Positions 1,834 through 26,681 of a DNA stretch of 26,681 nt are shown piece after piece. How positions within the stretch are numbered: position 1 is the stretch's first letter; each line of letters begins with the position of its first letter. The position numbers were made by a program, and so were the translations under genes. The notes beneath the pieces are model-generated. The model was given only the letters and a program-made list of their open reading frames with translations. It had not been told where the DNA came from and made no database searches. Origin of the DNA: a virus (taxonomy: Duplodnaviria; Heunggongvirae; Uroviricota; Caudoviricetes); IMG/VR virus record IMGVR_UViG_2718217859_000002; one strand, 5' to 3'.

Positions 1834-1930
1834 CTTTATACTCTCCTTATTCGTTTCAATGAAAGTAGTTTTGATCATAAAACGATCATTTTCAATATGT
1901 TGCACGATACGTTTTATGGTTGAGAGCACT

Positions 1931-2017
1931 AAATGATCAAAAATGATTAAAGGGCTATTAAAAGGTGATTAAGACTGATTAAAAGGTATTAAAGGCGATT
2001 AAAACCGATTTAATTTA
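1931..2017. repeat. iteron-like array, about 7 copies of [G/T]ATTAAA(A)GG at 10-11 bp spacing
   Basis: Direct reading: tgattaaaggg, tattaaaagg, tgattaagac, tgattaaaagg, tattaaagg, cgattaaaacc, gatttaattt. Confidence 0.6.
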
Positions 2018-2243
2018 GGTGCGTCCGTCACCATCGTTGAACACAAAGATCAAGCCTCCCGATCTGATGCAGGCACAAATATGAAATATCTTATTGATTT
2101 ATAAGTAAATTTATTTTATTTAAGCTGTTCACAAATGATTTGTCTTGTCAAGAAATTTATTTTCGGCAGATGAAAAATAGCCAATAAATAGCGATAAATG
2201 GTCTATATATGCCTGAGTATATAAAGATCAGTAGGTTACAGAA

Positions 2244-2262
2244 TACACTTTGCTAAAGTGTA
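2244..2262. promoter_or_regulatory. perfect 8-bp-arm palindrome TACACTTT-gct-AAAGTGTA (operator-like)
   Basis: Inverted repeat read directly. Confidence 0.4.
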
Positions 2263-2647
2263 TCGAATCTGGGTTGTATTGCATTATAAGTGATAATAAT
2301 TCTTATTATTGAATTGTATGACAAATGATTATTCTCTTTGAGATGTGCACGAGTGAACATTCGTTCAACAAATGATAGAACGTTTATTGAGCAACAATTT
2401 TGCAGTGATGCGCTATATGCCGCATTACATAAGGCTTTGCTGATGATAATGTAAAAGTGAAGAAAGTAAGAATTGCACTTTGAATCTACCTTTCATTGCA
2501 TTTTTTAGTAGGGAATTACACGGAATAAGCTATGAATATTCTATGATTTACACGAGATATTCTTGCTGTTTAATTTCGGCTTTGGAGATCAGGCATTCGC
2601 AAGAATACGCTAATGCGTTGCCTGAAAAGCCATTGCACATAATAGAG

Positions 2648-2971
2648 GTGAGCGTATAGCGAACTATCAATGTGATCATTGCACGAATGATAATGAGTGG
2701 ATATAGATTCTATATATCGTTAGATTGTAGTTTGATAGTTAATGTGTAATGTAGATTGTATGAGCGTATAGCGAATGTTAGTTAGATCAACAACAAACTA
2801 ACCTTTAAATCTCTTTTATCTTCTCATAGATATGGCTATGCGTAGCAACCGAAGGTTAGCCATTAATCTATGCAGCCGTAAGGCTGTTTTGCATGTAATA
2901 GTTGTTTGTTGTTGGTAGTCGTTAGACAGTTACCAATTTATAGATCAGAGATAGATGTGAGCGTATAGCGA
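2648..2971. repeat. three dispersed copies of GAGCGTATAGCGA (2648-2662, 2761-2774, 2957-2971)
   Basis: Exact 13-14 nt direct repeats in an ORF-free AT-rich region. Confidence 0.6.
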
Positions 2972-3065
2972 TACACTAATCATAACAATATCTTCTTACT
3001 TTTTAGTTAGTTAGTTGTTAGTAGGTTATTGTTATGCGCGCTATTAGCGCATGTATAAAGGTATC

Positions 3066-3296
3066 ATTTTTATCTAAAGGGCTTTAGACATTTTTGATAC
3101 CTTTTTCATCTCTAAAAAAGTGTAATTTTTATCTAAAGGGGCTTTAGACATTTTTTACACCTTTTTCTGTGCAAGACACTTACCAGTGTGCACAATACTT
3201 ATGCTTTTCTAAAGCCGGGAATTTTTAAGTTTGATTGATCAATTGTTAACTTTAAAAGTTACTTTTAACAATCACTTAGACGATCTAAAGCCGCAA
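3066..3296. promoter_or_regulatory. operator cluster: two 40-bp direct repeats each with palindrome TCTAAAG(G)GGCTTTAGA (3073-3088, 3132-3148) plus TCTAAAG half-sites near 3208 and 3286
   Basis: Read directly; lies upstream of the plus-strand operon starting at 3520. Confidence 0.55.
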
Positions 3297-3437
3297 TTAA
3301 CATAATATAAGTTGACATGCAAGCACTTTTTACCATATAGTGCGGCCCCCTATCTATAAATCACACATTTTACCACTTGTCAATACCATAAATAACCTTA
3401 TAAAACAGGTGCTTAGTTTAGTATTGATAAATATTTA

Positions 3438-3466
3438 TTGACTAATACTATAAGATGGTGTATATT
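3438..3466 (+). promoter_or_regulatory. sigma70-like promoter TTGACT-N17-TATATT
   Basis: Hexamers at 3438-3443 and 3461-3466, about 55 nt upstream of the 3520 start; AGGAGG SD at 3507-3512. Confidence 0.45.
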
Positions 3467-3519
3467 AGCATTAGGGAATTGCATTCCGTAGTAACCAACA
3501 ACAACCAGGAGGTAAATAA

Positions 3520-3750
3520 TTGCGATGGTTTGACACTGAGCAAGTCTACATTGCCCTGAAATGTGGGGAAGTGAAACGCCACACAATAGCCAGCAATATG
3601 GGGCAATGCGTTACCCGTGGAGACGAGAAGCGTGCAAAGATGTTTCGTGATGCTCTTACACGGTATGACAGAGAACGCGCGATCATTGATGCGCAGAATG
3701 TGCCAGGGCGTAAGAAACGTGCTGGACGTAAATCACAATTAATCAACTAA
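3520..3750 (+). CDS. hypothetical basic protein (76 aa), TTG start
   Basis: AGGAGG 7 nt upstream of TTG; basic C-terminus (RKKRAGRK). Confidence 0.45.
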   Translation: MRWFDTEQVYIALKCGEVKRHTIASNMGQCVTRGDEKRAKMFRDALTRYDRERAIIDAQNVPGRKKRAGRKSQLIN

Positions 3751-3770
3751 CAAATAAAGAAAGGTGCTTT

Positions 3771-3932
3771 ATGGATATTCGATTCAATCCAGAAGTATTT
3801 GCAGAATTACGCACGATGGCAACACAACGAGGTATTAGTATTCCCGCGTTAGTTAACGTCATACTTAAAGAAAAAATCATCCTACATCAAGAGGAAAAAT
3901 ATGATAAAGACGATCAAACGAAAAATAGTTAA
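3771..3932 (+). CDS. ribbon-helix-helix (Arc/CopG-like) DNA-binding protein (53 aa)
   Basis: Below ORF-track size cutoff; translated by hand: MDIRFNPEVFAELRTMATQRGISIPALVNVILKEKI... fits a strand-helix-turn-helix pattern. AAGGTG SD upstream. 3' end overlaps next gene in another frame. Confidence 0.4.
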   Translation: MDIRFNPEVFAELRTMATQRGISIPALVNVILKEKIILHQEEKYDKDDQTKNS

Positions 3933-5385
3933 TAGCATTAATCCCGTTTACCTTGTAGATTCAATTTGCGGCTCAGGAAAGAGTCACCGCCTTATAGAAT
4001 ATATACTCGGCCTTCAAGATTCATCTGAAGCTATCCCGCAACGTGTTCTAATAGCCGTTCCTACGCATGAATTAGCCACAGAGACGCGTAATAAGATGTT
4101 AGACGCGGGAATACATGGTTATCATGTTAAAGTCGATAGCGGGGCTGTTTTAGCCCTTAAACAAACACTATCAGAATCCTTTGATTATCCGGTCGTTATT
4201 ACCACGCATCAGGCACTACAGGTTTTTTGTGAGAGAGCAACCTTTGATAGTGAGATGCAAAAACTCCTGTATCCCTTTCAAGTTTTCATTGATGAGATTC
4301 CGGCAGCTTGGCACGGCGATCACGCTACAGTTTTACATAGTGACTCTGTAACGGATAACTTCCCGTTTATGCAGTGGATGGAAGAGAGAGACGGATTATT
4401 ATTCCTTAAGTCTGACAATGAGAACGACCTTTACAAGTATTACCATGAACGCCACGCCGGATCGGATAGCCTGAAAGCGGTTATCTATGCTGTGCTGAAC
4501 GGTAGCGGCTTGCTTTATGGGGAAACAGATAAAGGGTACAGCTTCTTTGCGCAGACAGCTAACCCTGTGATCAATTGTGCAATGTGGTCTGAACGTCTAA
4601 CCATTATGGGGGCGGGTGTTAGCCGATCTGAATGGCGTTATGTAGCTGAGAACGTGGCTAAGGTGGAATGTATGCCAGCTCCTGATCATCTACTACCGGA
4701 CAACGACCGCAGAGAACATAAGAACACGCCTGTTAAACTGGTATCTGTGCTAAAGCCAGGAGTAAGAGCGACGCTTACGCAATTACAGGAAGTTTTTAAC
4801 AACCATCTACAGACGATTGCCCTTACTATGGGAAGTCGGTTTATCTTTGCAACGAACAACGACAAAGGGATCTGTAACTTCAAGACTATTGCACTCGATA
4901 GCCTGGAGGATAACGGGAAAGGAAAAGCGGTAAGCATGGCAAGCTACGGGCTGAACGTATACCAGAGCTACCACGCCGCCGCTTTCCTGGGGTGTGCTAA
5001 CCTCAATGCTACAGATAACAACCGATGGGCGCAATGGCTTAATTTCTCCGGTTATGACGCTGAGGCGGTGTTACGCCTTAAGGTTGAAGCAATGACCTAT
5101 GAGCGTTGCTACCAGTTTATAAGCCGCACAAGCATTCGTGATAGTTCCTGCAAAGAGGCTTTAACGTTTATCGTGCCTGATACGCAGTGTGCTGAATATA
5201 TCAAGCGTTGGTATCTTCCACAGGCTGAGATCACAACGTTAGGCATCGAGAAGGAAAGGAAGAAAGAGAAGGGCGCTAATACAAAGGCAGCTATTCAGGA
5301 ACTGAAAGCTAAAGGCATGAAGCAAAAAGCTGTAGCAGAGGCGTTAGGCTTAGGGATTGCAACGGTTAAACGTAACTGGAAATGA
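3901..5385 (+). CDS. P-loop NTPase, helicase-like (replication-associated?) with C-terminal HTH (494 aa)
   Basis: Walker A CGSGKSH near N-terminus, PTHELA (helicase motif Ia-like), TTHQAL, Walker B VFIDEIP; C-terminal KAVAEALGLGIATVKRN HTH. GAGGA SD upstream. Function inferred from motifs only. Confidence 0.55.
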   Translation: MIKTIKRKIVNSINPVYLVDSICGSGKSHRLIEYILGLQDSSEAIPQRVLIAVPTHELATETRNKMLDAGIHGYHVKVDSGAVLALKQTLSESFDYPVVITTHQALQVFCERATFDSEMQKLLYPFQVFIDEIPAAWHGDHATVLHSDSVTDNFPFMQWMEERDGLLFLKSDNENDLYKYYHERHAGSDSLKAVIYAVLNGSGLLYGETDKGYSFFAQTANPVINCAMWSERLTIMGAGVSRSEWRYVAENVAKVECMPAPDHLLPDNDRREHKNTPVKLVSVLKPGVRATLTQLQEVFNNHLQTIALTMGSRFIFATNNDKGICNFKTIALDSLEDNGKGKAVSMASYGLNVYQSYHAAAFLGCANLNATDNNRWAQWLNFSGYDAEAVLRLKVEAMTYERCYQFISRTSIRDSSCKEALTFIVPDTQCAEYIKRWYLPQAEITTLGIEKERKKEKGANTKAAIQELKAKGMKQKAVAEALGLGIATVKRNWK

Positions 5386-5404
5386 TCTACAACGGTGCAC
5401 ACAG

Positions 5405-5429
5405 AAAGGGGCAAATCAGCCCCTTTTTT
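5405..5429 (+). terminator. rho-independent terminator after helicase-like gene
   Basis: AAAGGGGC-aaatca-GCCCCTTT followed by a T run. Confidence 0.6.
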
Positions 5430-5588
5430 ATTGCCTGTAGTAAATAGCACGAATTGCTAAAGAAAAACTATTGACTATCTATAAACTTTATGATACTCAT
5501 AAGTATTGAGGTGCATACAACCTCAAAAGTAACGTATATAGAGTATCCCTTTATACATATATCATACAACAACCACAAGGAAAAGCAA

Positions 5589-5774
5589 ATGAAATATTTT
5601 TCAGTTTTAGATGTGCTGATGGCACTGATTGAAGGTCGAGTAAGCCGAAACCGGATTCTACAGAACCGTAACGCAGCACGCCGCAGCGGTTATCACGATC
5701 GTGAGGCTCTATTCACCGAAGCCCTGCAAAAGTTCGACCAGATTCGCAAACGTGAGAAGGAAGGGCAGCTATGA
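5589..5774 (+). CDS. hypothetical small protein (61 aa)
   Basis: ATG with AAGGAA SD; the track ORF from 5490 has no SD. Confidence 0.4.
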   Translation: MKYFSVLDVLMALIEGRVSRNRILQNRNAARRSGYHDREALFTEALQKFDQIRKREKEGQL

Positions 5775-6028
5775 AACATCATTTAAGCATTGGTAAGCAC
5801 GAATACGAGATCACGGAAAGCGGATACACACTGGCAAAACAGATCGCTGATAGCAATTATGAGCTACCCGCAATTATCAGCTTTCAGGGGCTACCCCATA
5901 GCAAGGAACACACACAGCACTGGTTAAATCACTTAAGCCATTTCGGGGTGATTCAGTATGAAGCTGTGAATAGTCAGACGTTCCGTTTGCTTGAGATAAA
6001 CCCGTTTGAATTGTGGGTGACGCTGTGA
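5771..6028 (+). CDS. hypothetical protein (85 aa)
   Basis: ATGA overlap with upstream ORF. Confidence 0.45.
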   Translation: MKHHLSIGKHEYEITESGYTLAKQIADSNYELPAIISFQGLPHSKEHTQHWLNHLSHFGVIQYEAVNSQTFRLLEINPFELWVTL

Positions 6029-6231
6029 TCATATTCGATAGCGAATTTTCACAAGAAATCTTTCTGCAATATTTACGGGAAAGAACGGGAATGATTCTGT
6101 TTGATTCTGAGTTTTCCGGTGTGGTAGGTGAGCAATTTTTATATGCTCTTCTCGATAGCCTAAGTAAACAAGGCTTATTGCAATATACAAAAACTCATAT
6201 GAAAGCATTTAGAATCGACTCTGTAGCTTAA
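6013..6231 (+). CDS. hypothetical protein with internal tandem repeat (72 aa), GTG start
   Basis: Protein-level duplication IIFDSEFSQEIFLQYL / ILFDSEFSGVVGEQFLYAL. Confidence 0.35.
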   Translation: MGDAVIIFDSEFSQEIFLQYLRERTGMILFDSEFSGVVGEQFLYALLDSLSKQGLLQYTKTHMKAFRIDSVA

Positions 6232-6269
6232 AACAAACAACTATCAAACATCTTGAAGGGTGGAAAACA

Positions 6270-6371
6270 ATGGAAAGCTTAATATTTTTCTTAGTATTCA
6301 TGATCGCTTCCTTTTTTAACACTGCAAGAAGAAAACCAAAACGAAGGGGAAGCAATGAGCAAGCAAAAAGG
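6270..6371 (+). CDS. 33-aa hydrophobic peptide (single TM helix plus basic tail)
   Basis: Hand-translated: MESLIFFLVFMIASFFNTARRKPKRRGSNEQAKR; GGTGGA SD-like upstream. Below track cutoff. Confidence 0.25.
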
Positions 6372-6735
6372 TAAGAAAAACGTAATAACAACTATTGGCG
6401 AAGCATGTGATCAGTATGCGTTAAACAATCCTCGCAAATATAACTACGAGCATGATGCACAACCAGGCGAAGAATTGATCTTTATACTTGAAGAACCAAG
6501 CCCAGAATTAACAGACGAAGAATTATCACTCATTCAAAGTATGGACGGTGTTTATTTTAATCCACGTCCACGCAAAACAACGGTTATAGATTCCAGTCTT
6601 CTAAAAAGATGGCAGTGTTTGGGGTTTTCAGACATGGCCCATTTTAGGGGGTATATGTCAATGAATAGCCTTCAATATGCAGGCGTGCGAGAAACCGAAT
6701 TACTTCTGCTTGATAAAGTAAACATTGACGATTAA
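6355..6735 (+). CDS. hypothetical protein (126 aa)
   Basis: GAAGGGGAAG SD-like upstream of ATG. Confidence 0.5.
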   Translation: MSKQKGKKNVITTIGEACDQYALNNPRKYNYEHDAQPGEELIFILEEPSPELTDEELSLIQSMDGVYFNPRPRKTTVIDSSLLKRWQCLGFSDMAHFRGYMSMNSLQYAGVRETELLLLDKVNIDD

Positions 6736-6776
6736 CAGCGTTTGCTGAATATAAACCTTAACAAAAGGAAAATAAA

Positions 6777-6998
6777 ATGATTAACAAAGCAATTTTAGAG
6801 ACAACCACTTTTCACGATCTTAAACTTCTTTCTGAATGCTTCATAAGCCTGATTGAACGAGCACAGGAAGAAAACGATCTCGGTTTACTCGATGATATTA
6901 TAGACAACATTGCAACTTATAAAATCCCGCTCACCATTGCTATGAAGAAAGCACGCGAAGCACAACAACAATTAGAACAATTAGAGGAAGTGGCATAA
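6777..6998 (+). CDS. hypothetical protein (73 aa)
   Basis: ORF with AAGGAAAA upstream. Confidence 0.45.
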   Translation: MINKAILETTTFHDLKLLSECFISLIERAQEENDLGLLDDIIDNIATYKIPLTIAMKKAREAQQQLEQLEEVA

Positions 6999-7306
6999 TG
7001 AGCACTACACACAACGTAACTATTCAGATGATGGATCTGATTATTTCTTTACAGAAGGCAGTTAATTCGGCTCTGACGTTTCCAACTGAGCTAACCATTG
7101 CACAGGCTGTTATTAACCTGGAATCGACGCGGGAAGCACTTGAACTACTTATTGCAGCGTGCGAACAATCCGAAGGTGCACAGGTTGAAGCTGACGAATT
7201 GTCTAATCTGATCATCGTTATTCATGACACCACTGAAATCATGAAAGAAGCGGTAGCAGACCTGCAACCACTCATTAATGAACTAATCGACAAGGCTAAC
7301 AACTAA
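6998..7306 (+). CDS. hypothetical acidic protein (102 aa)
   Basis: ATAATG overlap coupling with upstream ORF. Confidence 0.45.
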   Translation: MSTTHNVTIQMMDLIISLQKAVNSALTFPTELTIAQAVINLESTREALELLIAACEQSEGAQVEADELSNLIIVIHDTTEIMKEAVADLQPLINELIDKANN

Positions 7307-7515
7307 TGACAAAAACTAAACGTGTGCGCCTTCTGGCGCTCACAGAAGAAGGGAAAGCGGGTAATTGTTTCACAGTAGGTAAAGTGTATACCGGCTTACT
7401 CGACACTTACACCCGCCTGATGCACGTAACCGATGATAACGGTAACGATCAAACAATCGTTTTAGATGGTAATTGCGTATTTGGTGAATGGGAACTGACA
7501 ACCGAAAAGAATTGA
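7306..7515 (+). CDS. hypothetical protein (69 aa)
   Basis: TAATG overlap coupling. Confidence 0.45.
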   Translation: MTKTKRVRLLALTEEGKAGNCFTVGKVYTGLLDTYTRLMHVTDDNGNDQTIVLDGNCVFGEWELTTEKN

Positions 7516-7534
7516 AAAAACTTTGATTTAACTA

Positions 7535-7563
7535 TTGACTTTATAACAGAAATGTTATATAAT
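7535..7563 (+). promoter_or_regulatory. near-consensus sigma70 promoter TTGACT-N17-TATAAT
   Basis: Hexamers at 7535-7540 and 7558-7563 with a 17-nt spacer. Confidence 0.5.
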
Positions 7564-7569
7564 AAGAAG

Positions 7570-7810
7570 TGTAGGGGAAAGAATCTAAAACAGGTGTTAG
7601 CTGGCGTTAATCCTTCTCCCGATTTTAATCCTACACGAAAGCGGGGTAGACCTCAAGGGGTCGCGCCCTATCTAACCTGCCTCGCTTTCCCTTTACCAGT
7701 TTTTTTAGAAATTGTTTCCCTCGTTAATAGTTTCATATATTTTCCTTATTGCTTTATCAAAATTGTGTCTTAAGAATGCAGGGGCTACGGATTTGGCCCC
7801 TCATCTTTTT
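7570..7810 (+). ncRNA. candidate small non-coding RNA (promoter to terminator, no convincing ORF or SD)
   Basis: Predicted start about 7570; GC stem pairing 7634-7645 with 7681-7691 followed by a T run near 7700; second terminator at 7781-7810. Confidence 0.3.
7781..7810 (+). terminator. rho-independent terminator
   Basis: GGGGC-loop-GCCCC followed by TCATCTTTTT. Confidence 0.55.
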
Positions 7811-7957
7811 AACCAACTGCGAAGCATGAAACACTTTCTAAAAACACTGTTTACAGTGTCTATAAACCCCGTATAAACAAATAACGGTGTATATTGTTTC
7901 TTGACAACAATTCTACTAAGCCAAAAGCTGAATATGTTTTTTGTTTGTTGGTGTTTA

Positions 7958-8146
7958 TTAAGGTGCCAATCTTAGAACGCTGAAAGCGTGGATGATCCCC
8001 GAAATCATCTCGGCACCGCCTCCTATTAAAATGAGAATCCAAAAGGTTTGAAAGTTAATAGTAGTTCCTAAAAGTCTGATCGATGCATCCACATTGTGAA
8101 AGACAGCGATTAGCCATCGCACGAATAACAGGTTTATAGATTCCAA
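7958..8146 (-). CDS. small hydrophobic protein (62 aa), TTG start
   Basis: Perfect AGGAGG SD 8 nt upstream of TTG (minus strand); hydrophobic sequence with GGG turn. Confidence 0.3.
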   Translation of the reverse strand: MESINLLFVRWLIAVFHNVDASIRLLGTTINFQTFWILILIGGGAEMISGIIHAFSVLRLAP

Positions 8147-8310
8147 AGGGGGCGACCTCCTAAGCGCCTACTCCCTGTAAGCCTGTTATTCAACCCCTCA
8201 AGGGTATATAACAATAAGCAATCTTATTCTTATATGTCCTCCTCTTTAAGTTCATATAACTGCGATTTAGTAACACTCTATAACATCCTTCAAATGTTGT
8301 ATTCATAAAG

Positions 8311-8340
8311 CCGGAAGCTTTCCCCTTCCGGTTTTATTTT
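8311..8340 (+). terminator. rho-independent terminator just upstream of structural operon
   Basis: CCGGAAG-ctttccc-CTTCCGG followed by TTTTATTTT. Confidence 0.6.
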
Positions 8341-8382
8341 GTCAGCACTAAACAAGAATGTTAGAAAAAAGGTAAAGCAACA

Positions 8383-8598
8383 ATGCAAAATCTCATTCTA
8401 AAGAATGGTAATGAAGAATTGATTATCACTAATGAAGCATTCAACGCTACGGCTTATATGTTGGGAATCACTCCCACAGAATTGAAAAAACATTGTGATA
8501 AGCTTTTTAAGTCTGCTGATGAACAGAAACCTACTATGCAGGATCTGATTAAAGCAAAAGCAGAACAAATCAAACAATCCAAAAAAGGAAACAATTAA
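8383..8598 (+). CDS. hypothetical small protein (71 aa)
   Basis: AAGGTAAAG SD upstream; first gene of structural cluster. Confidence 0.45.
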   Translation: MQNLILKNGNEELIITNEAFNATAYMLGITPTELKKHCDKLFKSADEQKPTMQDLIKAKAEQIKQSKKGNN

Positions 8599-8601
8599 TT
8601 T

Positions 8602-8973
8602 ATGGCTATTATTAATATGAGCGATCTGTTTCCAGTTCGCAAATCATTTACCGATATCGTTTCATATGCAACTGATGAGTTCGGTTGTGTGCAATCTTTT
8701 ACCGTTGATCTGGCGGTTGATGTTGAATGTGGCGATCTGATTACCAGTGACGGCGCTGAATATGTAAGCGGCGGCGATGTTCTTGTCGTTGTGTCTGATG
8801 CGGTATCCGCTGGCGACGCTAAAACCGTTAACGTGCTGCGTAGCAATGCCGGACTGGTTTGCATCAAATCCGATGCTCTGAATGTTGAAGGCGCTGTGAA
8901 AGAAGCCGCTATTGCTGCCCTGGCTGCAAAAGGTTTCCAGATGGCTGGCTTTAATACTGTATTCACATCTTAA
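8602..8973 (+). CDS. putative head decoration-like / minor virion protein (123 aa)
   Basis: Beta-rich V/D/A/G/S composition; sits immediately upstream of the capsid-like gene (decoration-then-capsid order as in lambda D-E). Homology not verified. Confidence 0.4.
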   Translation: MAIINMSDLFPVRKSFTDIVSYATDEFGCVQSFTVDLAVDVECGDLITSDGAEYVSGGDVLVVVSDAVSAGDAKTVNVLRSNAGLVCIKSDALNVEGAVKEAAIAALAAKGFQMAGFNTVFTS

Positions 8974-8991
8974 TATAAAGGAATAAAAATA

Positions 8992-10020
8992 ATGATTATT
9001 GGTAATGAATCCGTCGATCTGGCTCCGCTGTTTAGTCTGCACGACTCTCGCAACTTCCTGTTAACTTCTCTCGACTTTACTGATCCGGTAGGTGTGAGTT
9101 CTCATAAAGTGGCTGTTAGCCAACTGGTGGAAACTAACGAATCTCTGTTCAACAAAGAAACCTCTCGTTTCTCTTCTGAACATAACGTGACTAAACGTGA
9201 ACAGGGTAAAGAATTTTTAGTAGAGATCCCCTACTTCCTGCGTGAAGATATGATTAAGCCGCAAGACGTGCAAGGCAAACGTAAGCCAGGCGCTACCGTT
9301 GAAGAAACTCTGACAGATATCTACGCGGAATATGTTGCTAAGCACCACATTGCTTTCCAGCGTACTAAAGAGAGCGTGCTGGCTGCTTCCCTGTTTAGTG
9401 GTCGCACCTACACCCCTAAAACTGACGATGTGCTGATCCAGTGGGGCGATCTGTTCAGTGCTGTTCCGATGACTGCAACCATCGACGCATCAAGCACCAC
9501 ACCTTCTATGGTGTTCCAGCAATTCGATCAGATGCATACAGACGTTATCACTAAAGCACAAAGCCAGGCGGCTGCTGTAGAGCGTATCGTTGTATTCTGT
9601 AAACCTGCCGCTTTCAACGCTATCCGTTACAGTGCTGGCATGGTTAACGCGTTCCAGTATGCAAGCCCTACCGACGACGCAAACATCGTTTATAGCGTGC
9701 GCTCCCTGCTGCCAGGTGTGACTACCTTCACTATTCCAGGGACTAATATCGATATCGTCAAAGTTACCGATCCGCTGCTGCTGGCGCATATGACTTCTGA
9801 TGCGGTGGCTGTTCCGAAGTTCGCTAAAGGCTCTAACGTCTATCAGAACATTTTCGGCGCTCCGTCTTCAACGTTCGACCTGCTGAATTCTGGATCGGCT
9901 GAATATTACAGCTATGCATTTAGCCCAGCACGTAACGACGCTGTAAACGTAGTTACCGAGAATAGCCAGATGGTTGTAAACCACGGCGTAGGCTTCACTG
10001 TACAGATCACAGTAGCGTAA
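8992..10020 (+). CDS. putative major capsid protein (342 aa; lambda gpE-like size and architecture)
   Basis: Size, position and a 30-aa helix-prone segment (TLTDIYAEYVAKHHIAFQRTKESVLAASLF) compatible with an HK97-fold spine helix; strong SD. Inference, not search-based. Confidence 0.5.
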   Translation: MIIGNESVDLAPLFSLHDSRNFLLTSLDFTDPVGVSSHKVAVSQLVETNESLFNKETSRFSSEHNVTKREQGKEFLVEIPYFLREDMIKPQDVQGKRKPGATVEETLTDIYAEYVAKHHIAFQRTKESVLAASLFSGRTYTPKTDDVLIQWGDLFSAVPMTATIDASSTTPSMVFQQFDQMHTDVITKAQSQAAAVERIVVFCKPAAFNAIRYSAGMVNAFQYASPTDDANIVYSVRSLLPGVTTFTIPGTNIDIVKVTDPLLLAHMTSDAVAVPKFAKGSNVYQNIFGAPSSTFDLLNSGSAEYYSYAFSPARNDAVNVVTENSQMVVNHGVGFTVQITVA

Positions 10021-10070
10021 TAAAGCGTTAATAGTCGTTTCCTGTGCGACTGGAAATAAAACAGGCAATA

Positions 10071-10137
10071 AGGGCAAAAGGGATTAACTAACCTGTAAAG
10101 CAAATACAGTAACGGATCTCTTTGCCCTTTTTGTTTT
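10071..10137 (+). terminator. structured terminator after capsid-like gene
   Basis: 9-bp stem AGGGCAAAG/CTTTGCCCT enclosing a 39-nt loop with nested CTGTA/TACAG hairpin, then TTTTGTTTT. Confidence 0.45.
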
Positions 10138-10170
10138 CTACCGTTTATTAAATATTGTGAGAGAAAAACC

Positions 10171-10362
10171 ATGAACACACAAAACAACAATCCCGTTGAA
10201 ATCTTGAAAGCTGTTTCCACCTTACCGGAAGATATTCTGAATATCTCTCAAGTATGCAAGTTTTTAGGGATCTCTAATACCGCTGTACGTCAAAGAATCT
10301 TTGCTACTGGCTGTTCCGCTATGGAAGCAGTGCAATATTACGTAGCAAAACAAAATAAGTAA
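10171..10362 (+). CDS. small HTH DNA-binding protein (63 aa)
   Basis: ISQVCKFLGISNTAVRQRIF helix-turn-helix pattern. Confidence 0.45.
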   Translation: MNTQNNNPVEILKAVSTLPEDILNISQVCKFLGISNTAVRQRIFATGCSAMEAVQYYVAKQNK

Positions 10363-10380
10363 AAGATAAAGGAAAATATT

Positions 10381-12222
10381 ATGGATCTGAATATCTCAAC
10401 CTTAACAAACAAGGTTGTATTTAAGGTGGATTTTGCATCATTACAGAAAGCACGCGATGCAGGTAAGAAATTCCAGAAAGAAATGGAAAACCTAACCAAT
10501 CCAACATTGAAAGGGAAGAAGGCTAAACGAGCTATAGACGATGCTAACGATCTGGTAAAAGCCCGTAAAGCTACACAGGCTAAAGCTGATGCCAAAGCGT
10601 CAGACAAGCAAGCTCAAACCGATAAGAAGAACGCTGATAAGGTGGCAAAGGCAGAAGCTAAAGCGAAGGCTAAAGCCGCTATAGCTGCCGATAAACAGAT
10701 CCGCGCTAAAGCAACGATAGCAGAGAAGGCAGAGATTAAACGCCAGCAAGCTTTTAGACAGCTTGAAGGCATCAAGAAAGGGCGTATGGGTGACGGTATG
10801 GACTCCGCCCAATACTACAAAACATTACAATACATCAAACAACAAACGGCAGCTTACGAGAAAGGCGCTATTAGTCAGGCTAAGATGAATCACCTGATCC
10901 GTGATCGCATCACGTTAGAACGCCGTGCGGCTGCTGTTAAAGCTCGCCAGGTGGCGGCTGATGGCGGTAAATATCCACATATGGCTAAACAGCTTAAAGG
11001 TGGTCATATAGGCGGTGGTGTAGGTGCAATGGTGGGCGGTGCTGCTCTCACTGCTGCTACTCTCGGCGGTGCTGCGATATTCAATACCGTAACCGATCAG
11101 GCAAGCAAGATCACAGACACTAACCGCAAGGCAAAAGCTGTTAACGTCAACACTAACGCCCTGTTAGCACTCAACCAGTACGGCTTAGAGCACGGGGTAG
11201 ATAGTTCCGTTGATCAACGTCAAGATAACCTTAAAGACGTTCAAGAACGTTTAGGCGAGACGATAGGGAATACTAAGTGGGATGCTAAAAAGGGTCGCTG
11301 GGCGGGGGGTAACGGTGCCGTTGATAACATCCTTAACAAATATGGTTGGAGTCCTGAACAGGTTAAAGGTTTCCAAACTGATCCATTAGGTTTCCTGGGT
11401 GCTGTAGTGAAAGAAGGCGAACGCCGTGGACTCTCTGACCAGGAGCAGGGTCACATGCTCGAAGACCTTGGAAATGATTTACAATATTTCCGTGGGGCTT
11501 TCAGTCGTAACGGTGAAGAGTTAAATAAAACTCTCGTTAAGATGCAACAAGCCAACGCCACCTATACACAAGCGGATCTTGACGCTGCTGAACGTCTGCA
11601 AGCTGTACAGGCTAATATGAATATGGCCTGGGAAGGTAGTAAGAAAGCTATCATGACGGGATTCGGTGAAGAGTTCGACGCTCAAGCTGGTGAAGAGTGG
11701 GCGCAAATGTTGAAAGATCTCAATCCTCTGTTTAAAGAACTTGGAAGCTCAACGGCTGAAATGATGAGTGCCTTTGCTGGTGCTGTATCGTGGCTTACTG
11801 CTGCATACCAGAATATAAATCCAGAGAACAAACATGAAAACCTTGATTCGTCCGGTATGTATTATAAGGACTCGTTTGTAGGTGGTATGGTTGATTGGGG
11901 TCGTAGTGCTTTAGGCTTATCGCCTATCCCTGGCACGGAAGACAAGCCAACAACTGGCGGAACTGCAATTCAGAACTATGCAAGCCCGTCCGAGAACGTG
12001 CAATCCCTGAAACAGAACGTTAGCCGTGATCTGAACACTACCCCATCTATGACGTATGCGCCAAGCATTGTCGTAAACGTGCCAGAAAGTAAGGTTGATG
12101 TGAATATCGCCCCTGATGGCTCTCAGCTTGGATCATACCTCGACTACAAAGTGGGAAGTATCCAACAAGATTTTGAACGTAGTTTCACGTTGGCGGCTCT
12201 GTCTGGGCAAGCACCAAGTTAA
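10381..12222 (+). CDS. large coiled-coil protein with Gly-rich hydrophobic segment (613 aa), tape-measure/pilot-like
   Basis: K/A/E-rich N-terminal coiled coil; GGHIGGGVGAMVGGAALTAATLGGAAIF segment; AAGGAAAA SD. Confidence 0.55.
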   Translation: MDLNISTLTNKVVFKVDFASLQKARDAGKKFQKEMENLTNPTLKGKKAKRAIDDANDLVKARKATQAKADAKASDKQAQTDKKNADKVAKAEAKAKAKAAIAADKQIRAKATIAEKAEIKRQQAFRQLEGIKKGRMGDGMDSAQYYKTLQYIKQQTAAYEKGAISQAKMNHLIRDRITLERRAAAVKARQVAADGGKYPHMAKQLKGGHIGGGVGAMVGGAALTAATLGGAAIFNTVTDQASKITDTNRKAKAVNVNTNALLALNQYGLEHGVDSSVDQRQDNLKDVQERLGETIGNTKWDAKKGRWAGGNGAVDNILNKYGWSPEQVKGFQTDPLGFLGAVVKEGERRGLSDQEQGHMLEDLGNDLQYFRGAFSRNGEELNKTLVKMQQANATYTQADLDAAERLQAVQANMNMAWEGSKKAIMTGFGEEFDAQAGEEWAQMLKDLNPLFKELGSSTAEMMSAFAGAVSWLTAAYQNINPENKHENLDSSGMYYKDSFVGGMVDWGRSALGLSPIPGTEDKPTTGGTAIQNYASPSENVQSLKQNVSRDLNTTPSMTYAPSIVVNVPESKVDVNIAPDGSQLGSYLDYKVGSIQQDFERSFTLAALSGQAPS

Positions 12223-13550: not shown

Positions 13551-13635
13551 GATAATGATCCTCTATTATCACGTAATCAGTTACCTATGATTGATCACAA
13601 AATCTTTATTTTACAGCAGGTTATTGTGGGTTTCC

Positions 13636-13657
13636 TCGATTCCCTTCGCCCGCTCCA
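13636..13657 (+). other. att core: 22-nt fragment matching the 3' end of tRNA-Gly(CCC) (TCGATTCCCTTCGCCCGCTCCA)
   Basis: Ends in CCA; acceptor 3' strand CGCCCGC pairs with the GCGGGCG 5' end of tRNA-Gly; matches my recollection of E. coli glyU. No 5' tRNA body present. Confidence 0.6.
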
Positions 13658-13821
13658 AACAAACATTTCTCAACGTCTACTAAAGTCCATCAAACCCACG
13701 AATATCAAGCCTTCCAGGCATTTTCATAGTTTATTAACGTCTACTCACAACTACCAGAATCTACACACAGAAGTGTATAGTAATGCGTATAGGACAAAAT
13801 TTATTTTTTGGAGCTATACAC

Positions 13822-15036
13822 ATGCTGCTTTCAGACCTTGCCATCAGGCGCGCGAAGCCGAAAGAAAAGGCTTATACACTCAATGACGGTAACGGGCTTT
13901 CGTTGCTCATTGAGCCGAACGGTTCGAAAGGGTGGCGACTGCGCTACAGGTTTGCAGGAAAGCCCAAAATGTTGTCGTTGGGTGTGTACCCTGATGTGTC
14001 TCTGTCTGATGCCAGGGCGGCAAGGGATGAGGCTAAAAGGCTTCTTGCTGGTGGTATAAATCCAAGTGAGGCCAGAAAAGCCCAAAAGCGAGAACAGGCG
14101 AGCAAATTTGGCAATACTTTTGAGGGTATTGCTCGCGAATGGTACGAAAAGCGGATCGACAGGTGGTCATCGTCATACGCCGAGGAAATGATCGAGACGT
14201 TTGAAAAAGATGTTTTTCCGTACATTGGCGGTAGGCCGATCGCAGAAATTAAGCCGATGGAATTGCTGGCGGTTCTTTCCCGTCTTAATGACCGTGGTGC
14301 GACTGAAAAATTGCGTAAGGTTCGCCAGCGATGCGGCGAGGTGTTCCGGTACGCAATCATCACCGGACGCGCCGAATATAATCCAGCCCCTGACCTGGTG
14401 AGCGCATTTGCTCCACATAAAAAAGAGCATTACGCCTATTTGAAGGCCGACGAACTGCCGGAATTTTTCCGCGTTTTTAATACGTACACCGGAAGCCAGA
14501 TCGTCAAACTGGCAATGCGGCTATTAATTCTGACAGGTGTCAGACCCGGGGAATTACGGCAGGCAGAATGGCAGGAGATCGATTTTGATAATCGTTTGTG
14601 GGAAGTGCCTAAAGAACGAATGAAGATGCGCCGTCCGCATTGTGTGCCATTACCAGAACAGGCGATAAAAATACTGGAGCAGTTAAAAAACATGACAGGC
14701 CAGTATCAGTTTATTTTCCCCGGTCGTATTCACCACAGTAAGCCAATGAGTGAAATGGCGATGAATGTGCTCATTCGTCGTATCGGCTATGCCGGGCGCG
14801 TTACTGGTCATGGATTCCGGCACACCATGAGCACCATTTTGCATGAGCAGGGCTATAACACCGCGTGGATAGAGACGCAGCTCGCACACGTCGATAAAAA
14901 CTCAATTCGTGGCACATACAACCATGCGCAATATCTGGATGGTCGCCGGGAGATGCTCCAGTGGTATGCCGACTATATGGATTCGCTCGAGCATGGCGGA
15001 AATGTGGTGCATGGTGAGTTCGGAAAATGCGGGTGA
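13822..15036 (+). CDS. int: P4-type tyrosine integrase of element 2 (405 aa)
   Basis: N-terminal LSDLAIRRAKPKEKAYTLNDGNGLSLLIEPNGSKGWRLRYRF arm-binding domain typical of P4/CP4-57-type integrases; C-terminal HGFRHT...Y; GGAG SD. Track ORF begins earlier at 13783 without SD. Confidence 0.9.
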   Translation: MLLSDLAIRRAKPKEKAYTLNDGNGLSLLIEPNGSKGWRLRYRFAGKPKMLSLGVYPDVSLSDARAARDEAKRLLAGGINPSEARKAQKREQASKFGNTFEGIAREWYEKRIDRWSSSYAEEMIETFEKDVFPYIGGRPIAEIKPMELLAVLSRLNDRGATEKLRKVRQRCGEVFRYAIITGRAEYNPAPDLVSAFAPHKKEHYAYLKADELPEFFRVFNTYTGSQIVKLAMRLLILTGVRPGELRQAEWQEIDFDNRLWEVPKERMKMRRPHCVPLPEQAIKILEQLKNMTGQYQFIFPGRIHHSKPMSEMAMNVLIRRIGYAGRVTGHGFRHTMSTILHEQGYNTAWIETQLAHVDKNSIRGTYNHAQYLDGRREMLQWYADYMDSLEHGGNVVHGEFGKCG

Positions 15037-15134
15037 CTGGTTGAGTATACAGTAGTAGACTTTGAGCACCTAAAAAGGCTGATGCAAACAGAGCTGGATC
15101 GGCCTTAACATTAGACCGCTTGAAGGGGGAGAAT

Positions 15135-15848
15135 ATGCCAATTGTGGAAAACATTCCTGACTTATCCCACTGGCGAACAGTACAGGAGTTTTCTATCACC
15201 CAGGCCGCTTTATTGTTGGCCGGAATTGATCCTTATGATTACCCTACTCTTGAACATGTCAGAGATAATAAACATGAACGTTGGAAAATGGCATGGGGGT
15301 TGGCTAATGGAATGGTAACAGCCATCCGTCGTGGTGTCTTAACTCCTGTTGAATGTACCTCTGAAATAGTTGAGTACGATAATTGGGGAAATGTTTGTGA
15401 TATTGAGTACAAACGTCTGACATCAGCGCAACTGACCGATCGTGCATATGAGATAAGCAAGGATAAAACTTTAATTAGTCGCCATTCTTTATATGAGTGG
15501 ATAAAAAATGAGAGCGTTGATTTTGCGAGATGCCCTCGCCCTATACCTGTTAAGGAAGTTAATCCGCCAGCAATCATTGAATCATCTCATCAGGTAATTA
15601 ATCCTGACGAGTATTTGTGTACTTATGGGCATAAGAGTGATGGGTTGGAGTATGTGCAGGATGCTATAAGGGAACTATGGTCGACGTATGACCCAGATGA
15701 CCCACAGACGGCTCCGACAGAGCATGAGGTACTTGAATATTTGAAAAAAAGGGGGGCGGGTTCTAATGTTGCTAGGGCTGTGAATCTGATTTTAAGGCCT
15801 GAACATCTGAAGCGTATTGGTAGAAGACCAAAAAAAACAAAAAGTTAA
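15135..15848 (+). CDS. hypothetical cargo protein (238 aa) in integrase-proximal variable region
   Basis: AT-richer than flanking genes; GGGGGAG SD; no recognisable motifs. Confidence 0.55.
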   Translation: MPIVENIPDLSHWRTVQEFSITQAALLLAGIDPYDYPTLEHVRDNKHERWKMAWGLANGMVTAIRRGVLTPVECTSEIVEYDNWGNVCDIEYKRLTSAQLTDRAYEISKDKTLISRHSLYEWIKNESVDFARCPRPIPVKEVNPPAIIESSHQVINPDEYLCTYGHKSDGLEYVQDAIRELWSTYDPDDPQTAPTEHEVLEYLKKRGAGSNVARAVNLILRPEHLKRIGRRPKKTKS

Positions 15849-16107
15849 ATAGTGGTCGCTATTCCAGAAAAATGGTGGTTTCCTTTCAAAAAAAAGTAAC
15901 CACCAATGCAGATTAAATCGTAAGAACAGTAATTTTTCTTCGTGTTTCACGTCAGCATGATACTTAAAATAGTAAACGCCATTATTAAAAAAAGGTGGAG
16001 CTATTTCACTGAAATGGTATTCGCCATTCATAATGGTAAGCATCTATAAATATCACTTTTCTTAATGCAAGCTATGTACACCTTTATAGACGTTACAAGG
16101 TGAATAT

Positions 16108-16305
16108 ATGGCAAACTCTCTTATTCGTTTAACGGAAGTTCAGCGTAGAACTGGATATAGCAAGGCATGGATTTATCGCCTTATGGGGCAAGGTAAATTT
16201 CCTGCATCAGTTAAAATTGGCTCGCGAGCTATTGCTTTCGTTGAGAGTGAAATTGACGAGTGGATTAATCAGCGTATTGCGGAATCACGCGGAACAGCTA
16301 CCTGA
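16108..16305 (+). CDS. alpA: AlpA-family phage regulatory protein (65 aa)
   Basis: LTEVQRRTGYSKAWIYRLMGQGKFP...ESEIDEWI matches the AlpA HTH signature; AAGGTG SD. Confidence 0.85.
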   Translation: MANSLIRLTEVQRRTGYSKAWIYRLMGQGKFPASVKIGSRAIAFVESEIDEWINQRIAESRGTAT

Positions 16306-16382
16306 TTAAATGGCTACGGGGCTATTGCCCCCAGCTATCCACCAGCAAATAAAAGTAACTTAATTCGATAGCAGGAGTTTTT

Positions 16383-17231
16383 ATGAAATTTCCAAAAACG
16401 CCCGTACAGGGGCAGGGCTTCGTTCGGCCTGAAAACCAGAATCTGCAAAATTTCGGCGATATTATCCCGGTTATTTCCGGTGTTATTGGCGGGCGTGAAA
16501 CCAATATTGTTAGCGCCAGAGCGTTGCATAAGGCGCTGGGTGTGAAGCGTGATTTCACAACCTGGATTAAAGGACGCATTGATGAGTACGGATTTAAAAA
16601 TGGCGTGGATTTTGAAGTTGTAGAAAATTTGTACTTTGATTCCCCGAAACGGGGGAACCAAAGTGTAAATATTGAACAGTTTGATTCTGATTGGACAACA
16701 AAGCGCGGCGGTGATCGTCGCAGTGAAGAGTATTTGATCTCCACGAACATGGCGAAAGAACTGGCGATGGTCGAACGCACCGAACAGGGCCGCGCCGTTC
16801 GTCAGTACTTCATCAAATGCGAGGAGGAGCTACACAAGGTAGCGCCAGTGCGTTCCGCAGCGTTACGCAGGGAACTGAAAGCCCGTATCACCGTTGCCAG
16901 CTACTTTAAGCCGATGTGCGCCGCGCTGGAGGCGTACCGGGCTGAACTGGGTAAAAACACACTCCAGCACCACTACACCACGGAAGCCAATATGCTGGCG
17001 CGTATCGTGCTGGGTGGCATGACTGCAAAACAGTGGGCGCAGGCGAACGGCATCACAGGCGAACCACGCGACCACATGAGCACGTTGCAGCTTGAGCACC
17101 TTTCTTACCTTGAGCAGAGCAATATCACGCTGATTGAGTTAGGCCAGGACTACCACCAGCGGAAGGCTGAATTAATTCGTCTTTCGCAGCGTTGGTTAGC
17201 CCGTCGCATGGAGGAAAACAGCCATGTGTAA
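16383..17231 (+). CDS. phage antirepressor-like protein (282 aa)
   Basis: Motif-level resemblance to AntA/KilA-C type antirepressors; AGGAG SD. Confidence 0.5.
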   Translation: MKFPKTPVQGQGFVRPENQNLQNFGDIIPVISGVIGGRETNIVSARALHKALGVKRDFTTWIKGRIDEYGFKNGVDFEVVENLYFDSPKRGNQSVNIEQFDSDWTTKRGGDRRSEEYLISTNMAKELAMVERTEQGRAVRQYFIKCEEELHKVAPVRSAALRRELKARITVASYFKPMCAALEAYRAELGKNTLQHHYTTEANMLARIVLGGMTAKQWAQANGITGEPRDHMSTLQLEHLSYLEQSNITLIELGQDYHQRKAELIRLSQRWLARRMEENSHV

Positions 17232-17618
17232 CGCTCTGACCGTTACAAAAAGAGAAAGCGCCCCGTTGCCGGAGCGCCTTTGTGAACGAATTACCTACAG
17301 CACCGCGATGTTTGCTATGTGGGTGAATTTTAGCGACAAGTTCGTTCAATGTGAAGGCACTGATCACCGTTACTACAGCACGCCAGAAATGCAGAATATT
17401 TTGCTGCAAAATGCCGTTGGCCACGCTGTCCGGAAAGCAAAAAATTTTGCTGGTGGCGCGACTGATGCGATTTTGTCAGGTCGCCAGGTGCTGATCAATC
17501 TGATGTCTGATTTCGTTCTGGATAAAACAAAGGCGACCGCAGAGAGCCGCCAGTGGAAAAGCTACATACTTGAACGCATCACCAACAATGCCACATTTGC
17601 GGCTGGTGGGCAATGTGA

Positions 17619-26490: not shown

Positions 26491-26501
26491 AGGTGTAAAT
26501 C

Positions 26502-26681
26502 ATGACCATCACCGAAGCCGATATGCTGGAGATGATCCGCAGCATTGCCGAAATCAAACAACCAGCAAGCAAAATTAACAGGTGTTCAGCGCCTGTTTCC
26601 GTTGTGCTGCAACAGGAACGCCACCAGCAGGATGATGTGAGGCCGTATCAGTGGAAGAAACCGGACAGGCCGCGACGGTGA
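26502..26681 (+). CDS. hypothetical small protein (59 aa), ends at window edge
   Basis: AAGGTG SD upstream of ATG; hand-translated; stop TGA is the last codon of the window. Confidence 0.35.
   Translation: MTITEADMLEMIRSIAEIKQPASKINRCSAPVSVVLQQERHQQDDVRPYQWKKPDRPRR

Follow-up and report, generated by a model that had tools for sequence, protein, structure and literature searches.

The late genes of phage lambda lie behind the promoter pR′ and the terminator tR′, with Q as the antiterminator and the 6S RNA, 194 nucleotides (nt) in length, as the terminated product. In the immunity system of P4, premature termination in a constitutive leader also yields a structured regulatory RNA, the CI RNA, which is related to the C4 antisense RNA of P1 and P7. 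ROOL, GOLLD, and RNAIII are large multi-helix RNAs, and the C-rich loops of RNAIII pair with ribosome-binding sites (RBSs). The put RNA of phage HK022 is a cis-acting antiterminator of ~70 nt that forms two stem-loops just past the promoter and acts independently of other factors via the zinc-binding domain of β′ (PMC9378689). conAn is a bipartite antitermination system of Gram-positive conjugative elements, which is proposed to shield a costly operon from spurious transcription (PMC8191782). The locus compared with these systems here lies in a 26,681-nt stretch of Caudoviricetes DNA (the window; IMG/VR record IMGVR_UViG_2718217859_000002), of which positions 1 to ~13600 form an island of ~14 kb. 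A gene-free interval of ~870 bp (7516–8382) separates the early genes of the island from its structural module and is predicted to harbor a promoter, a large structured leader RNA, and an intrinsic terminator, T2, placed directly before the capsid and tail genes.

By sequence and fold, T2 is a real and conserved intrinsic terminator (Table 1). Within 8300–8350, it folds as AUAAAGCCGGAAG-CUUUCCC-CUUCCGGUUUUAU with a free energy of −16.5 kcal/mol (z = −5.30), and none of 200 shuffled sequences folds as well. Seven G/C-rich pairs with an A–U extension enclose the 7-nt loop, the U-tract UUUUAUUUU abuts the stem, and 42 nt separate it from the ATG at 8383. T2 is not in the list returned by a simple consensus terminator scanner.

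Relatives of the locus were gathered from Escherichia coli genomes, by scanning metagenome and IMG/VR contigs for a DNA pattern, and through relatives of the capsid protein. They sort into six leader types, clades A–F; the window belongs to clade A, and clade F is the most divergent (capsid identity of 59%). In clade A, the T2 stem is invariant and its loop variable. Clades B, C, D, and E carry unrelated stems at the same position, all with a U-tract behind them (−20 to −26 kcal/mol, z = −3.5 to −5.9). The terminators of clades A–E all fold significantly better than shuffles, and a hairpin with a U-tract stands 35–75 nt before the first structural gene in every clearly resolved type (five of the six). 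Form and position have outlasted the sequence itself, and no other observation speaks as strongly for a selected, functional terminator. That at least five leader types hold this position with stems of unrelated sequence suggests that selection acts on the blocking of read-through. Thus, the strong terminator that the initial annotation had placed ~40 bp before the first structural gene is borne out by its fold, its distance from the gene, and its conserved position. A small hairpin between T2 and the RBS (8350–8361) has one pair changed from A–U to G–C in 8 of 22 sequences; covariation downstream of the terminator implies that read-through transcripts exist and are functional.

The leader promoter (7535–7563) is one of only three strong plus-strand sigma-70 sites in the island and the only plus-strand promoter-like site conserved across clades. 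It lies ~750 nt upstream of T2, with which it bounds a stretch of ~780 nt, and is retained in every clade with differing hexamers and spacers, such as TTGCAT-17-TATAAT, TTGACT-17-TAGAAT, and TTGACA-17-TAATAT. No other plus-strand promoter-like site was found between it and the first gene in the window, nor consistently in the relatives L002 and L003. The sequence between the −35 and −10 hexamers varies by clade and is not conserved, and the conserved initial transcribed element is UAGGGG, which is not −10-like; Q sites specific to single clades may exist. From its sequence, the promoter looks constitutive.

The DNA between this promoter and T2 is non-coding. Its three open reading frames (ORFs) are broken by stops or frameshifts even in relatives of 90–97% identity, while the flanking 69-aa and 71-aa genes stay intact. 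The interval 7774–8382 (609 bp) is matched in 66 of 5,426 complete E. coli genomes, with one chromosomal copy each; 59 of them cover at least 80% of it, and PGAP annotates nothing under it. Coding potential was rejected on these grounds.

It is instead well supported by sequence comparison that the interval specifies a large, covarying structured RNA, which is unannotated and was overlooked in the initial annotation. Its helices were read from minimum-free-energy (MFE) folds of diverged relatives, which agree. A covariance model, R1, built on the core helices P1–P3 (8066–8197) recovers all 23 true loci of clades A–D at 87–165 bits and none of three chance pattern hits. In the R1 alignment, 99.1% of cells are in standard pairs and 16 of 31 pairs show compensatory double changes, figures that are favored by the fitting of the alignment to the model and that derive from ~19 distinct sequences in four clades of shared ancestry. 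None of 500 shuffles scores as high, and sliding the pairing partners by one to three columns leaves at most three such pairs. Double changes in P3 are evident in the raw sequences (GGUUUAUAG/CUGUAAGCC, GGAUCGUAG/CUGCGGUCC, and GAUAUUCCUGA/UCAGGAAUAUC), and the loops CAUCCA, UUAGCC, and UCCUAAG are invariant. The alignment contains 46 G–U cells as opposed to 5 non-standard cells; therefore, the structure belongs to the plus-strand RNA. Among the 4,227 covariance models of Rfam 15, including ROOL, GOLLD, OLE, HEARO, and raiA, none matched at the gathering threshold in the whole window or at E ≤ 10 in 7450–8450, where chance sub-threshold matches alone were returned, and tRNA and tmRNA scans gave nothing.

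The promoter-proximal part of the leader is formed by two adjoining domains, SL1 and SL2. The apical hairpin of SL1 bears a conserved box, GUUAGCUGGCGUUAAUCCUUCU (7596–7617), which is near-invariant in clades A–D and recognizable in clade F. Changes in this hairpin are one-sided or wobble only, and those in the outer stems are compensatory by eye within clade A. At the position of SL2, clades B–D have another 13-bp stem, and L002 has none, so SL2 is dispensable. Further downstream, the first hairpin of a three-way junction keeps its stem within clade A while its loop varies (UGAAA, GAAAA, GAAA, UUUC, and GAAAU). An inverted repeat that could pair the leader with the initiation region of the first gene (7740–7756/8373–8389) gives a duplex energy no better than that of shuffles in nine relatives (z = −2.4 to +0.7). 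A by-eye look for a riboswitch-like antiterminator gave no conserved complement to the 5′ arm of T2; no formal search was made. A stretch at the predicted 5′ leader end, AGGGGAAAG (7561–7581), and one covering the loop and 3′ arm of T2, CUUUCCCCU (8318–8338), show perfect complementarity over 9 nt. This 9-bp pairing is not retained in L015 and L008, two variants of clade A, and is probably due to chance or lineage-specific. A direct repeat of the 3′ half of T2 at 7684–7706 is also not conserved in L015 and L008.

The ornate core is common to clades A–D. The leader of clade E is short (~300 nt), gives no match to R1, and is missing the core; it retains the promoter, the 5′ UAGGGG start, the CU-rich box (as CUUCUCCUCCUUAAGU), and T2. 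On this basis, the promoter, the CU-rich box, and the terminator constitute the common unit, and the core is an accessory domain of clades A–D. Each of the six leader types has the CU-rich box ahead of T2, in variants of CCUCCUC(A/U)..AAG. The boxA consensus is UGCUCUUUAACAA in rrn operons and CGCUCUUA in lambda, and the box contains CUCUUUAA, the rrn boxA core. This sequence is exact at 8242–8249 in clade A and has related forms in clades E (CUCCUUAA), D (CUCUUAUA), and B and C (CUCCUCAAAG). No conserved hairpin lies within ~20 nt downstream of it.

The path from the leader promoter to the last gene of the module crosses three terminator-like hairpins, T1, T2, and T3, as in operons with processive antitermination, and several terminators behind one promoter suggest a processive mechanism organized on the leader. 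T1 folds with z = −3.3 in the window and has unrelated equivalents in L002 (z = −4.3) and L003 (z = −3.8). It is weaker than T2 because its U-run begins 3–4 nt after the stem. T3 precedes the 63-aa and tape-measure-like genes and has counterparts in L002 (z = −1.4) and L003 (z = −3.3).

The best explanation of these features, to which we give about an even chance of being right, is a gate in which the promoter, the structured leader, and T2 would make expression of the capsid and tail module dependent on terminator bypass. The parts that sequence comparison supports directly (the terminator and its conserved position, the promoter, the non-coding interval, the RNA structure with its strand, and the further terminators on the path) would act together as follows. 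RNA polymerase would start at the leader promoter and make an untranslated, folded leader of ~780 nt. Most polymerase would halt at T1 or T2, leaving the module (8383–12222) silent, and the module would be transcribed only once polymerase becomes terminator-resistant through processive antitermination. The leader elements that are conserved, namely SL1/SL2 and the CU-rich box before T2, would presumably serve as the platform on which this state is established. The bypass factor could be encoded by a helper or by the island, or it could be the leader RNA itself.

Several points weigh against the gate. The proximal hairpin of clade F is weak (z = +0.35), and a stronger terminator-like element lies ~200 nt upstream in the clade F locus L177. 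T1, with its displaced U-tract, may have a structural role and not be a terminator; it is missing from the short clade E leader, and a 22-nt inverted repeat with 91% complementarity flanks it (7697–7718/7828–7849), so it may be the tip of a longer stem and not a free-standing terminator. No Pfam or PHROG match to a Q-, Ogr-, or Delta-like protein was found in the scanned ORFs of 3520–12222 (5490–5774 from its internal start at 5589 only). No credible phage match was obtained in a BLAST search with the 111 promoter-proximal nt, and no leader box shared with phages was found among the matches listed. The core, with its 130–290 nt and invariant loops, far exceeds the needs of any known antitermination site; oversized and absent from clade E, it probably has another role. 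Efficient termination in vivo, the regulation of read-through, and its cause are inferences from nucleotide sequence.

By its proteins, the island is akin to neither lambdoid nor P2-like phages, and there is no sign of a lambdoid Q or a P2 Ogr. The nearest phage relatives are the ~150-kb virulent Stephanstirmvirinae myoviruses. Those of the capsid protein are Phapecoctavirus and Justusliebigvirus (~25% identity), and the tape-measure-like protein is 31% identical to the tape-measure proteins of phAPEC8-like phages (E = 1e-44). The two island genes are diverged copies of the phage genes, and they have the same relative order in the island and in phage anhysbys (L160), the one candidate helper genome covered (69 kb). 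In clades B–D, a baseplate-annotated protein follows the tape-measure-like gene, matching the gene after the anhysbys tape-measure gene. A small gene also precedes the island capsid gene where anhysbys has its head-decoration gene. Its 123-aa product was rejected as a head-decoration homologue, as BLASTP shows no similarity between it and the decoration protein of anhysbys and the match is one of gene order only. These likenesses suggest an undescribed satellite-like or interference element directed at virulent phages.

A comparison with 50,697 phage records gave no DNA match to the island. R1, run with filters off over the 19-kb structural region of anhysbys, gave sub-threshold matches only. 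Just past the tRNA cluster of anhysbys (1622–1830), a hairpin GUGCG-ACUCCUUAA-CGCAC resembles the P3 cap GGCG-ACCUCCUAAG-CGCC; this stretch is not among the R1 matches at E values up to 10. The 5′ box TGGYGTTAATCCTTCT, scanned in IMG/VR, showed extended similarity only in members of the island family among the matches listed, and the remainder are attributable to chance. In the inspected 69 kb of anhysbys, no product is annotated as an antiterminator. The Q-type or Ogr-like helper factor proposed in the initial annotation is therefore unsupported: no such protein was recognized in the island, the promoter spacer is not conserved between clades, and the kin are phAPEC8-like myoviruses.

A more far-reaching form of the gate is doubtful. 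In it, the 7565–8340 transcript would represent an undescribed class of large structured RNAs, itself the switch, in undescribed E. coli tRNA-Gly islands that parasitize phAPEC8/phi92-like myoviruses. The RNA would either render polymerase terminator-resistant in cis, as a put- or conAn2-like antiterminator of a Gram-negative satellite, or sequester the strong RBSs of helper late mRNAs with its exposed anti-Shine-Dalgarno-like loops while the island capsid genes, with their weak RBSs, escape.

A substantial alternative, though an unlikely one, is that the interval constitutes an independent non-coding RNA gene with T2 as its own terminator. The RNA would act in trans, for example by pairing its repeated, exposed (C)CUCCU..AAG motifs with strong Shine-Dalgarno regions of helper-phage mRNAs, and gating would be a by-product. 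The constitutive look of the promoter, the invariant core loops, and four CU-rich motifs (at 8019, 8064, 8156, and 8238) are in keeping with such a role. The 12 island genes examined (starts 3901–10381) use weak AAGGA-type RBSs with at most 4 nt complementary to the loop, and anhysbys genes use strong (U)AGGAG(G) sites; the RBS of its decoration gene, CUUAGGAG, is complementary over 8 nt to the invariant loop CUCCUAAG. However, among ~280 phage genes, one such 8-nt match would be expected by chance, a target search within the window found none, and clade E keeps the promoter and T2 but not the core. A decoy or antisense role of the leader is thus conceivable, with support that is presently no better than chance, and an RNA acting in trans, be it the whole leader or the core alone, is compatible with a gating role.

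Less probable still is the proposal that T2 is a mere insulator against transcription from upstream and that the module has a weak, activator-dependent promoter overlapping or just past it, for example TTGTCA (8339–8344)-17 nt-TAGAAA (8362–8367), served by a helper late activator as Ogr/Delta serve P4 Psid. Hexamers of this kind (TTGTCA/TTATCA and TAGAAA/TAACAA) recur after T2 with a 17–18-nt spacing in clades A and E, and their poor look is typical of activator-dependent late promoters. Nevertheless, they are without the conserved final T and were not called as a promoter, and no comparable site is conserved in clades B–D. A start there would leave a leader of ~9 nt that loses the AAGG RBS, and the covarying hairpin at 8350–8361 would fall between the hexamers and hence outside the transcript.

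The initial annotation had noted three TATAAC motifs upstream of T2. Its literal model, in which promoters at these motifs would give a short transcript stopping at T2 and a Q- or Ogr-type helper factor would allow passage, is very improbable. The motifs are present on the plus strand (8207, 8255, and 8279) and form a local cluster within 78 nt, although the window-wide count of 10 is not above the 13.6 expected. Motif 1 (8207–8212) belongs to the covarying hairpin P4, where it lies in the 5′ arm, and motifs 2 and 3 lie in a variable segment, are absent from clades B–F, and vary within clade A itself (TATAAA, TATCGC, TATTGC, and TATAGC). None has the conserved final T of a −10 hexamer or a −35 partner, and none was called in the promoter scan. 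A T4-type late promoter, TATAAATA, coincides with motif 2 in a single relative (L009) and was rejected as an explanation; it occurs twice in the 19 kb of anhysbys examined, both times within coding sequence. The structural regions of the related phages have consensus sigma-70 promoters and intrinsic terminators, and the intergenic gaps examined there contain neither TATAAC nor TATAAATA. The terminator of the initial reading stands, and its geometry is partly right; its TATAAC promoters give way to the conserved promoter at 7535–7563, and its Q/Ogr attribution is unsupported.

That the interval is a DNA site (cos/pac packaging or replication origin) with incidental hairpins is hardly credible: a satellite needs a packaging site, the interval lies directly before head genes like lambda cos, and the 9-mer GGCGACCTC (8152–8160) equals part of lambda cosN, but this 9-mer falls in a covarying, non-conserved stem (GGCG/CGCC vs UGGC/GCCA), the helices are held through G–U pairs workable only for plus-strand RNA, there is no match to the phage records, iteron-like direct repeats were not found, and a cos site was accordingly rejected.

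Table 1. Predicted features of the leader, the terminators, and the adjoining genes (window coordinates)
Feature	Positions	Strand	Sequence or structure	Basis
Leader promoter	7535–7563	+	TTGACT-17 nt-TATAAT, 11 of 12 consensus matches	Promoter scan, cross-clade conservation
SL1	7569–7636	+	5′ stem-loop domain (68 nt), begins a few nt past the predicted start (near +6)	MFE folds of nine relatives agree
SL2	7637–7689	+	53 nt, 13-bp stem GAAAGCGGGGUAG/CUGCCUCGCUUUC, abuts SL1	MFE folds
T1, terminator-like hairpin	7780–7810 (hairpin 7780–7808)	+	AGGGGCUA..UGGCCCCU, then CAUCUUUUUA	Terminator scan, fold
Three-way junction	7962–8017	+	GGUGCC..[ACGC-loop-GCGU]..[GAUGAU-loop-AUCAUC]..GGCACC	Sequence inspection
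Covarying core P1–P3	8074–8191	+		Covariance model R1
P1	8074–8104		Loop CAUCCA	
P2	8106–8120		Loop UUAGCC	
P3	8123–8139/8175–8191		17-bp stem, capped by a hairpin with invariant loop UCCUAAG (CCUCCUAAG, 8156–8164)	
P4	8201–8240	+	Long hairpin	MFE folds of six relatives, each 17–20 bp here with differing sequence
CU-rich box	8238–8250	+	CCUCCUCUUUAAG, single-stranded, anti-Shine-Dalgarno-like	Unpaired in window MFE fold
TATAAC motifs 2 and 3	8255–8260, 8279–8284	+	Variable segment	Clade A only
T2, intrinsic terminator	Stem-loop 8305–8337, U-tract 8332–8340	+		Fold vs shuffles, positional equivalents in clades B–E
Terminator stem, clade A			GCCGGAAG/CUUCCGG	
Terminator stem, clade B			GCCCC..GGGGC	
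Terminator stem, clade C			CCCCC..GGGGG	
Terminator stem, clade D			AGCCCC..GGGGCU	
Terminator stem, clade E			GGCGGC/GCUGCC	
Small hairpin between T2 and RBS	8350–8361	+	AACA-AGAA-UGUU	RNAalifold pairs 385–388/393–396
T3, long-stem terminator-like hairpin after capsid gene	10063–10140	+	Stem, then UUUUUGUUUUCU	−27 kcal/mol, z = −3.8
69-aa gene directly upstream of leader	7306–7515			
First structural-module gene (71 aa)	8383–8598	+		Kept in all clades; tblastn identity 35–100%; intact in 8 relatives; PGAP-annotated in relatives
Major capsid protein gene (Phage_cap_E fold family)	8992–10020	+		Pfam PF03864 (7e-11), PHROG 29
Tape-measure-like protein gene (613 aa), last of module	10381–12222	+		PHROG 16051 (1e-65)

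In complete E. coli genomes, the island site is at tRNA-Gly, with actS on one side and yqeG on the other, and the leader is carried by ~1% of these genomes, O26:H11 EHEC strains among them. The leftmost gene (1–621) matches the anti-phage defense protein PD-T7-4 (PADLOC, 6e-90) and has a DUF4145 domain; thus, the island has defense cargo. The other genes upstream of the leader encode a small tyrosine recombinase and, all on the plus strand, a helicase-like protein and a string of small proteins of unknown function. The structural module encodes, in order, proteins of 71 aa and 123 aa, a Phage_cap_E-type major capsid protein, a 63-aa protein, and the 613-aa tape-measure-like protein, and is followed by a convergent integrase gene.

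Judging solely by gene content, the island is plausibly a satellite. The profile scan recognized only the integrase, the helicase-like protein, the capsid protein, and the tape-measure-like protein; it found no portal, protease, terminase, sheath, or tube gene in the island with Pfam and PHROG profiles, no dedicated satellite classifier being used. The markers of known satellite families are also lacking, namely sid, psu, delta, and alpha of P4; alpA, pri-rep, and terS of PICIs; the capsid set of cfPICIs with portal, protease, and terS; and the PLE core genes. The Tai tail-assembly-inhibition systems were rejected as an account of the island, as their published description does not cover this element.

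Two more near-consensus sigma-70 promoters stand at the head of the early gene block (3312–3341, TTGACA-18-TATAGT; 3438–3466, TTGACT-17-TATATT), preceded by a gene-poor, A+T-rich stretch (~1930–3500, GC 0.34–0.36). The rest of the window (13600–26681) is a second, unrelated integrative element in tandem with the island; in other genomes, yqeG directly follows the first island. The second element encodes an integrase (13783–15036), an AntA antirepressor (16383–17231), a D5/P4-alpha-like primase (19278–21050), a ProQ/FinO-domain protein (21692–22270), and head-protease-like (23611–24282) and baseplate-hub-like (24625–25662) proteins.

If the gate works as proposed, it would show how an island with its own capsid and tape-measure-like genes stays silent until a phage arrives. 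The gate is apparently linked to large virulent phages, for which E. coli satellite biology appears unexplored in the literature searched; nothing was found there on the island or on satellites of phAPEC8-like phages. The leader, as a well-supported structured RNA found in ~1% of complete E. coli genomes, also offers an accessible system for RNA-based control of elongation or for phage–satellite conflict.

Lambda Q, put, and conAn are architectural analogues of the island leader; on the features tested, its membership in any of these families is unsupported. It resembles conAn in that a large (260–600 nt), poorly conserved RNA region heads a long mobile-element operon with internal terminators (PMC8191782) and in the small gene directly upstream, here the 69-aa gene. 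However, conAn belongs to another phylum and element type, no ConAn1 homologue is present, and the island RNA has a separate promoter before it and a terminator after it. The likeness to put is one of architecture: SL1 and SL2 abut and begin within ~10 nt of the predicted start, as in putL, and a put-type RNA would explain the bypass of several terminators without a dedicated protein. In contrast to the ~70 nt of put, SL1 and SL2 together span ~120 nt, and one relative has no SL2.

As with the CI RNA of P4, downstream genes of a satellite would be held off by termination in a leader together with a structured RNA, although P4 controls its replication genes in this way and not capsid genes. No Rfam C4 match was obtained under the thresholds given above, and repeats of the seqA/seqC type complementary to loops were not found in the window. 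With ROOL, GOLLD, and Staphylococcus aureus RNAIII, the leader shares a length of several hundred nt, many covarying helices, residence on a mobile element, and exposed C/U-rich motifs. In contrast to these RNAs, it matches no Rfam family, and its place as an operon leader between promoter and terminator is atypical for them.

The comparison with lambda, drawn already in the initial annotation as a resemblance to pR′–tR′, holds for geometry only. No Q gene, conserved Q-binding spacer, or −10-like pause element was recognized in the island; the promoter lies far upstream of T2; the elaborately folded leader reaches a length of 780 nt; and the protein kin are not lambdoid. At the sequence level, a sigma-70 promoter and a terminated RNA directly precede the late genes, as in Q-type systems. 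In both cases, a constitutive-looking sigma-70 promoter produces, or is predicted to produce, an untranslated RNA whose intrinsic terminator directly precedes head and tail genes, with more terminators beyond, and the terminated RNA of clade E would measure ~250 nt, compared with the length of 6S given above. If the gate is correct, the island would have a layout like that of the lambda late switch, assembled from unrelated parts.

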